Assembly: GCA_934454405.1 (NCBI GenBank)
Contig: CAKSFN010000006.1
Coordinates: forward strand, 10,503 to 74,502
Length of the DNA: 64,000 nt
Direction of reading: 5' to 3'
Source of the DNA: an uncultured Eubacteriales bacterium
Lineage (GTDB): Bacteria > Bacillota > Clostridia > Oscillospirales > UBA644
The notes under the pieces were generated by a model, which was not told the DNA's origin, did not search any database, and was given only the letters and a program-made list of their open reading frames with translations. Shown one piece after another: positions 59,976 to 63,989 of this stretch (position 1 is its first letter; each line of letters opens with the position of its first letter). The translations under genes and the position numbers were made by a program.

Positions 59976-60545
59976 ATGCTCATATCTTATATGTTGCAAG
60001 AAAAAAACATAACGAAATACCGTTTGTCAAAAATCAGCGGTGTTCCTTATTCGACGGTCTGTGATATTTGTTCCGGCAAGGCGCAAATTGAAAAATGCTC
60101 CGCCGAAACGGTTCTGCGGCTGTCCGATGCCCTCGGGATTTCGATGGAGCAGCTTGTTCGTCCCTGTATCGATCGTCCCGAAAGTTTCGACCTTTTCAGG
60201 AGCAATGTGTGTCATAGACTTAAACTTCTCGGGGACACGGCTTTTATTGCGGAGCTGCTTGAAAACAATGAAATCCGGAAGTATTATAAAGACGGGAGGT
60301 ATGCCGAAAGCCTTTATCTTCTTGCGATGCTTGATTGGCTTTGTCGGGTATGCGGGCTTCCCGTTTGTTCCGAATATGACAGTCTCCGCCGTTGCAAACT
60401 GAAAACAAAAATTTACCCGTCAAGCGTTTTGGCTGCCGCGAAAATATTGAAAAGCGATGCTCCCAAACATTCTGCCGAAAAAAACGCCATACCTGAATTT
60501 CTCAGATTTAATATAGTCGAGAGCGAGGTTCGGGATATTGTATAA
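59976..60545 (+). CDS. XRE-type HTH protein with extra C-terminal domain (putative antitoxin/regulator)
   Basis: N-terminal HTH (ITKYRLSKISGVPYSTVCDI.SGK). Overlaps the downstream gene by 8 nt. Confidence 0.75.
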   Translation: MLISYMLQEKNITKYRLSKISGVPYSTVCDICSGKAQIEKCSAETVLRLSDALGISMEQLVRPCIDRPESFDLFRSNVCHRLKLLGDTAFIAELLENNEIRKYYKDGRYAESLYLLAMLDWLCRVCGLPVCSEYDSLRRCKLKTKIYPSSVLAAAKILKSDAPKHSAEKNAIPEFLRFNIVESEVRDIV

Positions 60546-61260
60546 GCAGAATAATGTATTCACCAAAAAAGATCTTGATCTGTACCTGAAAGAACTTGCA
60601 AAAGAGTTCAGAAAACTTAACGGCGTTGCAATGCCCGCCGAGCTCGTTCTGGTCGGAGGCGCCGCCGTTTTGGCAAATTACGGTTTCCGTGATATGACTG
60701 CCGATATCGACGCCGTTATTCGCGCTTCATCTGCCATGAAGGACGCAATTTCCCGTATTTCCGACCGTTTCGACCTTCCGAGCGGTTGGTTGAACTCCGA
60801 TTTCACAAAAACATCATCGTACTCTCCGCGGCTTGAAGAGGTTTCCGTATATTACAGGACTTTTTCAAATATATTGACAGTTCGCACCGTCAGCGCCGAG
60901 TATCTTGTTGCGATGAAACTGCGTTCCGGCAGAAAGTACAAAAATGATATTTCCGATGTTGTCGGAATACTTGCCGAACACAAAAAAGCCGGCAATCCGC
61001 TGACTTTTGAAAAGATAGACAACGCCGTCGAAACTCTTTACGGAGGGTGGACGGGTTTTCCCTCCGATTCGAAATCTTTTTTGGAACAGGCTCTCAAAAC
61101 TCCTCATATCGAAAAGGTTTTTGACTCTGTCAGAAAAGAGGAACTTTCCGCAAAATCCGAATTGGTCGTCTTTGAAAAAGAAAACCCCGGGGTTGCGGAC
61201 GAAAAAAACATCAATGAAATTCTGGAAATGCTGAAACGAAAGAAAAAAACTGATTTATGA
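60538..61260 (+). CDS. Nucleotidyltransferase-fold protein (AbiEii/DUF6036-like)
   Basis: LVGGAAVLANYGFRDMTADIDAV fits the hG[GS]..D.D NTase signature. TTG start; there is no in-frame ATG nearby. Confidence 0.65.
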   Translation: MYKQNNVFTKKDLDLYLKELAKEFRKLNGVAMPAELVLVGGAAVLANYGFRDMTADIDAVIRASSAMKDAISRISDRFDLPSGWLNSDFTKTSSYSPRLEEVSVYYRTFSNILTVRTVSAEYLVAMKLRSGRKYKNDISDVVGILAEHKKAGNPLTFEKIDNAVETLYGGWTGFPSDSKSFLEQALKTPHIEKVFDSVRKEELSAKSELVVFEKENPGVADEKNINEILEMLKRKKKTDL

Positions 61261-61336
61261 TTTGCGATCGGGCTGAGAATACTTCGCCCGATCGGCGGCT
61301 TTGCCCGAAAAGATAAAAAAAGTTCACACACCCCTA

Positions 61337-61365
61337 TTGACAAAACCGCCGATATGTTGTATAAT
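61337..61365 (+). promoter_or_regulatory. Consensus promoter of the tRNA operon
   Basis: TTGACA-17 nt-TATAAT, about 70 nt before tRNA-Gly. Confidence 0.75.
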
Positions 61366-61434
61366 TATTAAGCCTTGATTGAGAGCAGCGCTCTTTTTCA
61401 AAAAAAACGGAGCGGCGTTCCGTCAACATAATTT

Positions 61435-61508
61435 GCGGGTGTAGTTCAATGGTAGAACCCTAGCCTTCCAAGCTAGTCGCGTGGGTTCGATTCCCATCAC
61501 CCGCTCCA
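61435..61508 (+). tRNA. tRNA-Gly (anticodon TCC)
   Basis: Hand-folded cloverleaf. Acceptor GCGGGTG/CACCCGC, anticodon stem CTAGC/GCTAG with loop CTTCCAA, encoded CCA. Confidence 0.9.
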
Positions 61509-61515
61509 TTTATGT

Positions 61516-61592
61516 GTGCTTGTAGCTCAGCCGGATAGAGCATCTGCCTTCTAAGCAGAGGGTCGGGGGTTCGAGTCCCTTCAAGCACGCCA
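61516..61592 (+). tRNA. tRNA-Arg (anticodon TCT)
   Basis: Acceptor GTGCTTG/CAAGCAC, anticodon stem TCTGC/GCAGA with loop CTTCTAA, GGTTCGAGTCC T-loop, encoded CCA. Confidence 0.9.
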
Positions 61593-61595
61593 TAC

Positions 61596-61673
61596 GGTGG
61601 GTATAGCTTAGTTGGTTAAAGCGCCAGTTTGTGGCACTGGAGATCGAAGGTTCGAATCCCTTTACCCACCCCA
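61596..61673 (+). tRNA. tRNA-His (anticodon GTG) with encoded G-1
   Basis: Extra 5' G, acceptor GTGGGTA/TACCCAC, anticodon stem CCAGT/ACTGG with loop TTGTGGC, encoded CCA. Confidence 0.88.
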
Positions 61674-61679
61674 AAAGAC

Positions 61680-61709
61680 AAAAACAGTCCTCGAAAGAGG
61701 GCTGTTTTT
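61680..61709 (+). terminator. Rho-independent terminator after tRNA-His
   Basis: AAAAACAGTCCTC-GAAA-GAGGGCTGTTTTT. Duplicated at 62153-62182. Confidence 0.75.
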
Positions 61710-61720
61710 GCTTTTGGGAC

Positions 61721-61881
61721 GGGTAAAGGAATTAACGAACCTGTTTCGCGCAGCGAAACAAGGTTCGTCGCAGCAGCGATTTTTGCAAAGCAAAAATCGA
61801 CTGTGAAGTCGCGAGTGAGCAAAAAACTTCGGGCACCGCATCAGCGGTCGAAGTTTTGTGAAACGCAGCGTACCCCTTTAC
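61721..61881 (+). repeat. 161-nt cloverleaf-like structured element, family 2, copy 1
   Basis: Closing stem GGGTAAAGG/CCCCTTTAC around three hairpins: ACGAACCTGTTTCGC.., CGATTTTTGC-AAA-GCAAAAATCG and AAAACTTCG..CGAAGTTTT. Confidence 0.8.
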
Positions 61882-61946
61882 TCGGCGTAAAGTTTTGATA
61901 AGACAAAAATAAATGAAATGTTGCGGTTGTTTTTTATTTTCGGGGT

Positions 61947-62107
61947 GGGTAAAGGAATTAACGAACCTGTTTCGCGCAGCGAAACAAGGTTCGTCGCAAC
62001 AGCGATTTTTGCAAAGCAAAAATCGACTGTGAAGTCGGGAGTGAACAAAAAACTTCGGGCACCGCATCAGCGGTCGAAGTTTTGTGAAACGCAGCGTACC
62101 CCTTTAC
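61947..62107 (+). repeat. Family 2 element, copy 2
   Basis: Differs from copy 1 at 3 positions by eye. Its 5' flank GGGGTGGGTAAAGGA is the complement of the tRNA-His 3' end. Confidence 0.8.
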
Positions 62108-62152
62108 ATTGCATGAAGTTATAACAAGGCAAAAAAGGGAAAATTGACGAAA

Positions 62153-62182
62153 AAAAACAGTCCTCGAAAGAGGGCTGTTTTT
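62153..62182 (+). terminator. Duplicate of the tRNA-operon terminator
   Basis: Identical hairpin and downstream GCTTTTGGGACGGGTAAAGG as at 61680-61729. Confidence 0.7.
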
Positions 62183-62193
62183 GCTTTTGGGAC

Positions 62194-62628
62194 GGGTAAA
62201 GGGATTTGGCTGAAAATGACCGAACTCTCATCGGTTTTGACGGGCTGATTTTCGCCCTGACTTTCGCAAAAGCCTTGTAAATACGTCAAGTATTCACTAC
62301 GGCTTTTTTGTCGTTATGACAAAAATCCGCACCGTGAAAACTGCCGGCACCCGCCACAGAGAAATTTTCGAGGAATTTTTTCTTTTTGAGACGCAGGCGG
62401 GCTGACGCCCGCCAAGACGAAAAGAGAGAAAATAACCGAAAATAGCCTGTGTCGGGCGATAAGAGTTCGGTCATTTTCAGCCGTTAACCTGTTTCGCGCA
62501 GCGAAACAAGGTTCGTCGAAACGGCGGAAAAAGGAACTTTTTCCGACCGTGAAGTCGCGAGTGAGCAAAAACTTCGGGCACCGCATCAGCGGTCGAAGTT
62601 TTGTGAAACGCAGCGTACCCCTTTACCC
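62194..62628 (+). repeat. Family 2 element, copy 3 (swapped middle hairpin, carries a 275-bp nested insert)
   Basis: Same closing stem (GGGTAAAGGG/CCCCTTTACCC) and outer hairpins. The middle hairpin is replaced by CGGAAAAAG-GAA-CTTTTTCCG. Confidence 0.8.
62208..62482. repeat. Nested 275-bp insert with perfect 21-bp terminal inverted repeat
   Basis: GGCTGAAAATGACCGAACTCT (62208-62228) and AGAGTTCGGTCATTTTCAGCC (62462-62482). Its internal blocks match the insert at 25090-25362. Confidence 0.8.
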
Positions 62629-62833
62629 TGCGTAAAGTTTTGATAAGACAAAAATAACGGCAGGATTTCCTGCTCGTGGAAGCGCGACGGCGGCAAGGTC
62701 ACCTTTGAAATAAGCGTTCCTCCCAACACTTCCGCGCGTTTTTGCGCCTGCGGTGTTGACAGGGAGCTCTCTGTCGGCGCGAATGTGATTGAGGCTGAAA
62801 TAAACTGAAACGAACGCGCAATTTAGCTGTTAT

Positions 62834-62880
62834 AGGGAACTTTTTATCTGCTTTCGGGCGAAAAAGTTCCCTGTTTTTTT
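62834..62880 (+). terminator. Hairpin + T-run built from the AGGGAACTTT motif
   Basis: AGGGAACTTTTT-N15-AAAAAGTTCCCT followed by GTTTTTTT. Confidence 0.55.
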
Positions 62881-62989
62881 GTGCTCTCTGTCGTTTATAT
62901 CCGACAGGCTGATTTCGGGTTTCCTTCATATTTTTCGGTATTTCAAACGTTGAAAATTTTGACATTTCCGTGTGCAGAGGGAATATCTA

Positions 62990-63040
62990 TTGCAAAATAG
63001 GGAACTTTATGATATAATAATCTTGAAAAAAGTTCCCTAT
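62990..63040 (+). promoter_or_regulatory. Promoter of the Fic gene embraced by a 12-bp inverted repeat
   Basis: TTGCAA-17 nt-TATAAT (TGn). ATAGGGAACTTT (62997) and AAAGTTCCCTAT (63029) flank the -10 box. Confidence 0.65.
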
Positions 63041-63050
63041 GGAGGCTTAT

Positions 63051-63989
63051 ATGAACAATAATTATTCTCAGATCCGGGAATTGCTTCATCAGAAAGCGGA
63101 TTTTCAGGCGAGATTAAATCTTATTCCGTATGACGGCTCTCCCGAGGTCAAAGAAACGGACGGAAAAAAATATCTGTATGTTCGCAAAAGGGTCGGTTCG
63201 CGGCTTGTTTCAAAGTATGTCGGAGTGTATTCCGACGAATTGTATCAGCTGCTTCTTCGGAATACCCGTGACGCAAAAGAATTCAGAAAAAATATCCGCA
63301 AACTTGACAGGGAGCTTGCTGTTCTCGGATATTCGAATGCCGAGATCTCTCCGAGAGTACAGCTGAATTTGGATTTTGCAAGGGTCAATATGAAATCCAG
63401 CATTTACGATCAGGCAGTACTTGAAGGTGTTGCGACGAGCTTTCCGCAAACCGAGGATATTATTGAAAACGGCGCGGTAAACGGTATGACGGCGAGCGAT
63501 GTTCAGAAGATACTGAATCTTAAACACGCGTGGGAGTTTATCCTTGACCCCGACGTTATCTGCTATCCGTCGGATTATTCCATTCTCTGCCATATCGCAA
63601 ACCTTGTCAACGAGGGCTTTTTTCAGAACGGCGGACGCATACGCGGCGTTCCCGTAACGATAGGCGGCACGGGTTATGTTCCGCCGTTGCCTGTCGAAAC
63701 GGTTGTAAAGGAGAATATAGCAGAGATTCTTCAAGCGGATATTCCGTCCGACGAAAAGGCGATAAATCTGTGTCTTTATTGCATGAAGACGCAGATATTC
63801 AACGACGGCAACAAACGGGCGTCCGTCATTTTTGCAAATCATTATCTCATTTCGCAGGGCGGCGGTCTTCTCATTATTCCCGAAAAAAATGTGCCTGATT
63901 TCAAAAAAATGCTCATAAATTACTATGAGGATAAGGACGGCGGCGAGATAACGGACTTTATGAAGAGGCTGTGCATAAGGACATTTTAG
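63051..63989 (+). CDS. Fic/Doc-fold protein with non-canonical motif (Q in place of catalytic H)
   Basis: The motif region reads TQIFNDGNKRASV where Fic/Doc proteins have HxFx(D/N)GN(G/K)R. Start at MNNNYSQ, 5 nt after GGAGG; the track ORF begins 12 nt earlier. Confidence 0.7.
   Translation: MNNNYSQIRELLHQKADFQARLNLIPYDGSPEVKETDGKKYLYVRKRVGSRLVSKYVGVYSDELYQLLLRNTRDAKEFRKNIRKLDRELAVLGYSNAEISPRVQLNLDFARVNMKSSIYDQAVLEGVATSFPQTEDIIENGAVNGMTASDVQKILNLKHAWEFILDPDVICYPSDYSILCHIANLVNEGFFQNGGRIRGVPVTIGGTGYVPPLPVETVVKENIAEILQADIPSDEKAINLCLYCMKTQIFNDGNKRASVIFANHYLISQGGGLLIIPEKNVPDFKKMLINYYEDKDGGEITDFMKRLCIRTF

Follow-up and report, generated by a model that had tools for sequence, protein, structure and literature searches.

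A tandem array of structured, RtT-like units derived from tRNA-His behind a tRNA operon of an uncultured gut Eubacteriales bacterium

What is the repeated, strongly folded DNA that directly follows the tRNA-Gly/Arg/His operon of an uncultured Eubacteriales bacterium, where does it come from, and could it act as an RNA? The locus belongs to a stretch of 64,000 nucleotides (nt) from contig CAKSFN010000006.1 (assembly GCA_934454405.1, positions 10,503–74,502), here called the window, in which an initial annotation of the bare letters had noted three copies of a 161-nt, cloverleaf-like element. We find that this element, named element A in what follows, is a real and previously uncatalogued structured element, namely a tandem repeat derived from tRNA-His and built like the RtT repeats of the Escherichia coli tyrT operon. 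Its derivation from tRNA-His, its exclusive linkage to that gene, its conserved architecture, and its polymorphism in copy number and orientation can be read from about 30 contigs, all of them human-gut metagenome assemblies. As to its role, we consider the chances roughly even that the operon carries the array as a structured, RtT-like trailer RNA, a reading to which the sequence and the E. coli analogy both point. The parts of the locus are as follows (P1, closing stem; H1 to H3, hairpins 1 to 3; R1, a covariance model built from element A).

61337–61365, plus strand: promoter of the tRNA operon (TTGACA-17-TATAAT), matching the consensus at 12 of 12 positions
61435–61673, plus strand: tRNA-Gly(tcc), tRNA-Arg(tct), and tRNA-His(gtg), CCA encoded in each (ARAGORN; Rfam tRNA model, 65.7–71.4 bits)
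61685–61715, plus strand: terminator T1, CAGTCCTC-GAAA-GAGGGCTG and then TTTTTGCTTTT (sequence read directly)
61711–61742, plus strand: IR', in which T arm, acceptor 3' strand, and trailer of tRNA-His are copied in inverted orientation (local alignment)
61721–61881, plus strand: unit 1 of element A, with hairpin 2 allele a and hairpin 3 allele 1 (fold; R1, 197.7 bits); P1 pairs 61723–61729 with 61875–61881, H1 spans 61735–61768, H2 61769–61805, and the H3 arm 61808–61874
61882–61946, plus strand: inter-unit spacer, holding the right half of terminator T2 (61919–61941) and a second IR' from 61942
61947–62107, plus strand: unit 2 of element A, with 3 differences from unit 1 (R1, 188.4 bits)
62108–62193, plus strand: spacer with a second full T1 (stem-loop 62158–62177) and its U tract (direct repeat D3)
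62194–62207, plus strand: left stub of unit 3, the 5' strand of P1 (repeat comparison)
62208–62482, plus strand: element B, a structured repeat of 275 nt with a 26-bp terminal stem (inverted repeat I4, 96% complementary)
62483–62626, plus strand: right part of unit 3, with hairpin 2 allele b and hairpin 3 allele 1 (R1, 117.8 bits, model positions 15–154)
62627–62657, plus strand: 3' flank of unit 3, shared with unit 1 (direct repeat D2)

As judged by alignment, the link between element A and tRNA is one of descent. Across the units, the 5' 28–32 nt match the reverse complement of the tRNA-His 3' end with scores of 30–38 (shuffle maximum 21); IR' in the window, CTTTTGGGACGGGTAAAGGAATTAACGAACCT against the reverse complement of AGGTTCGAATCCCTTTACCCACCCCAAAAG, scores 38 against the same maximum, and in contig L030 the inverted copy matches over 25 nt without a single difference. 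This copy, which takes up some 30 nt at the 5' end of every unit and had been overlooked in the initial annotation, provides the 5' strand of P1 and the outer 5' arm of hairpin 1. The facing strands are short direct copies. The 3' arm of hairpin 1 (AAGGTTCG) repeats the same tRNA-His segment, and so, it appears, does the 3' strand of the closing stem, which reads CCCCTTTAC, or ATCCCTTTAC with hairpin 3 allele 3 and CCCTTTACCC in unit 3. Because both strands appear to copy the T arm and acceptor of tRNA-His, P1 and the base of hairpin 1 amount to a single duplex of inverted and direct copies; the tip of hairpin 1 breaks it on one side, hairpins 2 and 3 break it on the other, and a four-way junction is therefore the result.

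Folding agrees with this layout. The three copies of element A stand against zero expected by chance, and the first two are indeed 161 nt long with 3 differences between them (98.1% identity). For unit 1, a closing stem with three hairpin arms is predicted at −68.4 kcal/mol (z = −6.3), and none of 200 shuffles was equally stable, which bears out the four-way junction drawn earlier. The cloverleaf comparison holds for topology only. Like a tRNA (RF00005), element A has a four-way junction on a 7-bp closing stem, and part of its sequence comes from a tRNA; unlike a tRNA, it is twice the size and lacks the signatures of the D, anticodon, and T loops. The tRNA covariance model makes no call on it, and neither does ARAGORN, which reports no tRNA or tmRNA in element A by default and, when relaxed, yields spurious calls only, at very low thresholds. 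An identity as tRNA or tmRNA was thus rejected.

The tRNA-His 3' end, the terminator, and IR' together form a near-perfect palindrome of 79–90 nt that occurs in two versions, one with T1 and one with T2. In the window (61650–61738) it folds into an 89-nt hairpin of −52.5 kcal/mol (z = −11); the T2 version (L021:4642–4733) reaches −62.4 kcal/mol with a terminator core unrelated to that of T1. In the modeled equilibrium fold of a read-through transcript covering tRNA-His, T1, and IR', this 89-nt hairpin would displace the cloverleaf. T1 has the makings of an intrinsic terminator on the operon's strand, with a G+C-rich stem-loop (61685–61704; −18.7 kcal/mol, z = −5.6) followed by a U tract (UUUUUGCUUUU) up to 61715, and it is specific to the plus strand because of one U.G pair. 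Nearly every unit has a T1 behind it, and in most strains the array ends with one; the last unit of the window lacks it. The alternative terminator T2 is intact in L021, L026, L030, and L037. No second promoter-like site was found on the plus strand between the promoter of the tRNA operon and 62990, and none inside the array.

The array bears clear traces of growth by segmental duplication, as had been proposed. Repeat D3 (62153–62206 versus 61680–61733, 98% identity) comprises T1, its U tract, and the start of element A including the 5' strand of the closing stem. The duplication in front of the third copy is thus real and measures 54 nt, not the terminator plus 12 nt given earlier. At the other end, repeat D2 joins 62567–62657 to 61822–61912 (98% identity). 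Among strains, units have been gained and lost, so that arrays hold one to four of them. We count one unit in L022, L024, L025, and L028, two in L030 and L035, three in the window, L011, L031–L033, and L037, and four in L017 and L036, all of these being approximate numbers as short-read assemblies may collapse repeats.

The variation among units is most telling in the hairpins. Hairpin 2 comes in two alleles, CGATTTTTGC-AAA-GCAAAAATCG and CGGAAAAAG-GAA-CTTTTTCCG, whose flanking pair changes from A:U to G:C. Hairpin 3 comes in three, namely AAAACTTCG-GGC-ACCGC-ATCA-GCGGT-CGAAGTTTT, ATTTTTTCG-GGC-ACCGC-ATCA-GCGGT-CGAAAAAAT, and CGAATTGCG-GGA-ACCGT-AACA-ACGGT-CGCAATTCG. The stem sequences of the alleles are unrelated, and the arrangement of stem, bulge, and loop is unchanged; folded separately, the alleles of hairpin 3 share one layout, consisting of a basal helix, internal loops, a stem of 8–9 bp, a 3-nt bulge, a 5-bp stem, and a tetraloop. 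The interrupted basal helix shows matching changes as well, such as G:C to U:A and C:G to G:C. The alleles assort independently among units, and the units are therefore mosaics. In L022, the 5' arm of hairpin 3 allele 1 has met the 3' arm of allele 2, and the arm is lost (−11.8 kcal/mol versus −18 to −26 kcal/mol).

A model-based alignment of 24 distinct copies has 95.4% of its cells paired, and both sides have changed in 15 of the 61 pairs, a count reached by 0 of 500 shuffles (slid controls, 2–7). The junction is thus kept in related strains by compensated stems, as had been expected of it. P1 and hairpin 1 never covary, as one would predict for stems bound to the tRNA sequence, and the junction and loop sequences are invariant where the stems vary. 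Because asymmetric bulges, junction, and loops are kept while stems are replaced, the sequence pattern argues for selection on a single-stranded fold and against both a double-stranded protein-binding palindrome and hairpin-templated correction. Weak hints would favor the plus strand, namely the orientation of T1, an invariant G.U pair (56–90), a change from U.G to C:G (pair 102–151), and a G.U in allele 2 (pair 103–150).

Element A was met only directly 3' of this tRNA-His, so that the neighborhood suggested earlier is retained in all contigs examined. A metagenome scan for both strands of the closing stem returned 6 loci, 6 of 6 directly behind the same tRNA-Gly/Arg/His operon; further strains were retrieved by searching the translation of a minus-strand open reading frame (ORF) of the array against proteins and by exact look-ups of neighboring genes. 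In the 6 metagenome loci and the contigs recovered through the ORF calls, the element has the same orientation as tRNA-His. At least two lineages carry the array, because most close homologs of a clostripain-like neighbor gene are about 91% identical; homologs of that gene at 40% identity are labeled Saccharofermentanales or Clostridiaceae. More distant relatives, approached through Peptidase_C11 homologs (51–56% identity), proved uninformative, as their contigs end there or have no adjoining tRNA operon.

Orientation, too, is variable. In L019 (11060–11425), one unit lies inverted directly behind tRNA-His, with the join exactly at CCCTTTACCCACCCC, a 14-nt repeat common to the tRNA-His 3' end and IR'. 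An assembly artifact is unlikely because the shared run is only 14 nt, and the unit thus appears to be invertible. As regards a comparison with invertons, the inverted unit occurs in one contig type (L019) and at one similar place, and no invertase was identified. The genes downstream of the array also differ, with a Fic gene in the window, ECF and GntR genes in L018, and AraC and GH3 genes in L022, L024, L025, L028, and L031. An integrase/TetR/FtsK island follows the array in L030 (1–5700); in our comparison for remnants of attachment (att) sites, an integrase island was seen in L030 only and none in the window.

The third copy had been taken for one element of 435 nt (62194–62628). It actually consists of 62194–62207 and 62483–62626, split by element B, which had escaped the earlier reading and whose insertion has cost hairpin 1 part of its outer 5' arm. 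The accompanying remark, that the middle hairpin of this copy is a different but equally paired sequence, is confirmed by the alignment. Element B has a strongly predicted fold and sits at the same site of the last unit in most strains with more than one unit; no target-site duplication was seen and no Rfam family matched. A further copy lies in another intergenic region (L018:16344–16617; 91% identity), with 3 compensated pairs in the terminal stem. In L018, the array's own B copy is joined to different downstream genes, and this fusion suggests recombination between copies of element B.

Does element A belong to a known family? At the gathering score, Rfam finds the three tRNAs only in the window, and at E ≤ 10 over 61300–63100 it returns chance microRNA-type matches on the terminator palindrome and nothing credible; the check proposed for the element has therefore come out without a family. 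An R1 search of about 420 kb (the window plus the fetched loci) found copies in these arrays only. Blastn of one unit left phage and plasmid collections unmatched, and a scan of viral contigs gave 0 matches. Ten GTDB loci from a two-block junction pattern scan were set aside as chance matches, since they lie in high-G+C taxa with R1 E values of 0.03–0.5 or none; R1 sees no credible copy in them and no match in E. coli tyrT. Membership of RF00391, the RtT family, was rejected as well, there being no match at the gathering score (45 bits) or at E ≤ 10, whereas the same model matched 4 of 4 tyrT units at 133–138 bits as a positive control.

The likeness to RtT is nonetheless one of design. According to PMC3318445, which cites Bosl and Kersten 1991, rttR is one repeated unit of the E. 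coli tyrT operon. A second source (bioRxiv 10.1101/2024.07.17.603846) ties rtT RNA to the processing of the tyrT transcript and possibly to the stringent response, and calls its mode of action unknown. In E. coli K-12, we find 3.1 tandem units of 178 bp behind tyrV and one more unit between tyrT and tyrV. The final 19 nt of tRNA-Tyr stand at the end of each unit (6 occurrences including the two tRNA genes), and each unit carries GGGGAAGGAT..., a 22-nt inverted copy of the T arm and acceptor (score 29 against at most 22 in shuffles), which serves as the closing stem's 5' strand. Termination at tyrT is Rho-dependent and takes place inside the repeats. RtT is not known from outside the enterobacteria, and since 1991 no clear function has been assigned to it.

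In both systems, then, a tRNA gene is followed at once by tandem units oriented as it is. An inverted tRNA copy near the 5' end of the unit supplies one strand of the closing stem, its partner being a direct copy of the tRNA 3' end in E. coli and a putative, shorter one here, and small Arg/Lys-rich ORFs overlap the units (the protamine-like tpr in E. coli). The differences are just as plain. There is no similarity in sequence or model, RF00391 and R1 being negative both ways; the source is tRNA-Tyr in Enterobacteria on the one hand and tRNA-His in a gut Clostridia-like host on the other. The fold of the RtT model is simpler than the four-way junction with its three arms, the direct copy of RtT has 19 nt with CCA instead of 8–10 nt without it, and units of element A are mostly preceded by an intrinsic terminator. 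Moreover, the expression of RtT has been demonstrated, whereas that of element A is a prediction. In short, element A shares the RtT design without being a member of the family, and the design has a precedent.

How such an array would arise and work can be sketched accordingly in outline. A unit would begin as an inverted copy of the last 25–30 nt or so of tRNA-His, with which two short direct copies (AAGGTTCG, and CCCCTTTAC or ATCCCTTTAC) would pair to give P1 and the lower part of hairpin 1; hairpins 2 and 3, set between these direct copies, would complete a self-contained four-way junction of some 160 nt. Transcripts from the tRNA promoter that read through T1 would carry the units on the plus strand, where each may fold alone. 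The tRNA-maturing nucleases would then release each unit as a stable RNA of some 160 nt, as is reported for the rtT RNA of the tyrT operon. Any role in trans would presumably be modulatory at most, as with RtT. Unequal recombination between the 54-nt repeats of T1 and IR' could let the array grow and shrink, and recombination of the tRNA-His 3' end with IR' could invert a unit.

Several observations weigh against the trailer RNA reading. A strong intrinsic terminator (T1, −18.7 kcal/mol) precedes most units and the array has no internal promoter, so that a unit RNA could be made by read-through only. The main stems are all pure Watson–Crick, and the minus strand folds equally well (−67.8 kcal/mol for unit 1; mean difference between strands over 23 copies, −0.6 kcal/mol); a single-stranded DNA form or the opposite strand may be the relevant species. 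The alignment in which the 15 two-sided changes were counted is fitted to the structure, and these compensated changes trace to some 3–4 allele replacements, not to many independent events. Singleton variants break pairs without compensation in L023, L025, and L035 (the latter at 3.4× coverage). The direct copy at the 3' end of element A, with 8–10 nt and no CCA, scores 16–21 where shuffles reach 23–28, and the family has been seen in one species complex only.

Still, no rival explanation fits the allele pattern as well as the RtT-like trailer reading does. The array might be a non-functional DNA by-product. Template switching driven by the palindrome at the terminator hairpin would have produced first an inverted and then a direct copy of the tRNA-His 3' end, unequal crossing-over would have amplified the unit, and the hairpins would be kept by hairpin-templated correction, with no consequential RNA. 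Such an origin would sit well with the near-perfect palindrome of 79–90 nt in its T1 and T2 versions, the pure Watson–Crick main stems that fold alike on both strands, the terminator ahead of the units, the lack of a promoter within the array, the variable copy number, and the uncompensated singletons. We take it seriously and yet find it unlikely, since the three alleles of hairpin 3 and the two of hairpin 2 keep their bulges, loop sizes, and interrupted basal helices despite new stems, hairpin-templated correction would remove bulges instead of preserving them, and the junction and loop sequences are fixed while the stems differ. A cis-acting role has similar trouble. A fail-safe terminator or insulator array that stops read-through into the variable downstream genes and blocks 3' exonucleases, with no role in trans, would explain why T1 stands behind nearly every unit and last of all in most strains, and it would suit a promoter of perfect consensus; it leaves the preservation of the hairpin 2 and 3 architecture through stem replacement unexplained, however, and the last unit of the window has no T1 behind it, so that we rate it as very improbable.

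The two remaining rivals look to mobile DNA. If the tRNA-His 3' end were an attachment site and the copies secondary att sites or remnants, with the folded body as arm-type DNA, the array would be the recombination module of an integration hot spot. Tandem accretion at att sites in tRNA genes does resemble element A in its position at the tRNA 3' end, in the repetition of that end (each unit is bounded by short direct CCCTTTAC copies), and in strain-variable downstream content, the L030 integrase/TetR/FtsK island included, and the L019 unit is inverted exactly at CCCTTTACCCACCCC. Integration, however, duplicates the tRNA end directly, whereas the long copy here is inverted; the units are tiny (226–246 bp) and non-coding, with a structure conserved by compensated changes. 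No recombinase adjoins the array in the window, RtT of E. coli has the same design without an integrase, and the L018 rearrangement is accounted for by the dispersed repeat B. We hold this explanation to be improbable. As for a dispersed selfish repeat that landed and multiplied here with GGGTAAAGG/CCTTTACCC as its terminal inverted repeats, element A shares with REP/BIME, ERIC, and BOX repeats and with miniature inverted-repeat transposable elements (MITEs) that it is short, non-coding, strongly folded or palindromic, and repeated; its ends are complementary, and the neighboring element B is indeed dispersed. Unlike those repeats, it has all its copies at one locus, never away from tRNA-His (6 of 6 in the metagenome pattern scan; R1 search), its supposed terminal repeats are copies of the adjacent tRNA, and the unit borders show no target-site duplication. 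On the about 420 kb searched, in one species complex, membership of such a MITE-like family was rejected, and we give the idea hardly any credence.

The ORFs over the array call for a comment, as they supplied many of the contigs. They are Arg/Lys-rich, as had been stated, and the one used for retrieval is the following.

61732–62067, minus strand: spurious ORF over the array, with counterparts only as gene calls over these arrays

Its translation finds at least 31 gene calls of 67–195 amino acids in public metagenomes. A protein-coding reading was rejected, as the frame of the ORF shifts between units and the 31 database counterparts, all from the same arrays, have no Pfam domain on record. 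Where we examined gene tables of the contigs, an ORF of this kind is the only gene call over the array, if there is one at all.

The surroundings of the operon and array in the window offer some further observations. A helix-turn-helix gene and a DUF6036 nucleotidyltransferase gene form a pair before the operon (59976–61260) that L030 and L031 lack. Behind the array lies a Fic/DOC gene (63039–63989). Between array and Fic gene, GGGAACTTT occurs four times in alternating orientation (62832–62885 and 62994–63040), giving two hairpins. One of these, with a T run behind it, resembles a terminator, and the other spans the −10 region of a promoter-like site (62990–63018) and the ribosome-binding site of the Fic gene; the two may represent a shared regulatory stem. 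Just past the last unit, the minus strand has a terminator-like hairpin (62660–62673; GCAGGAAATCCTGC, then a T-rich run), which is predicted to stop transcription entering the array from the right.

What would the array mean for its host? A speculative possibility, which we consider improbable as it stands, is that recurrent palindromic copying of the 3' half of a tRNA makes new structured RNAs behind tRNA operons, RtT from tRNA-Tyr and element A from tRNA-His, in which the retained antisense match then becomes functional. If so, the 18–25 nt that still match the tRNA-His 3' end in antisense would pair with the T arm and acceptor of pre-tRNA-His, and the unit RNA or the read-through transcript would tune the maturation of tRNA-His or act as a decoy for factors that recognize that end. 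The idea draws on the thermodynamic fold, in which the 89-nt hairpin already outcompetes the cloverleaf.

Independent of this, the locus lends itself naturally to marking strain variation, combining copy number, inversion, and independently assorting hairpin alleles at a rearrangement hot spot. More broadly, element A provides a second instance of the RtT design, with an independent origin, a different tRNA, and a distant gut lineage as host. This suggests that a folded body closed by inverted and direct copies of a tRNA 3' end is a recurring class and not an oddity of E. coli, and it gives a simple rule for finding further cases, namely to look for inverted plus direct copies of a tRNA 3' end behind a tRNA operon.

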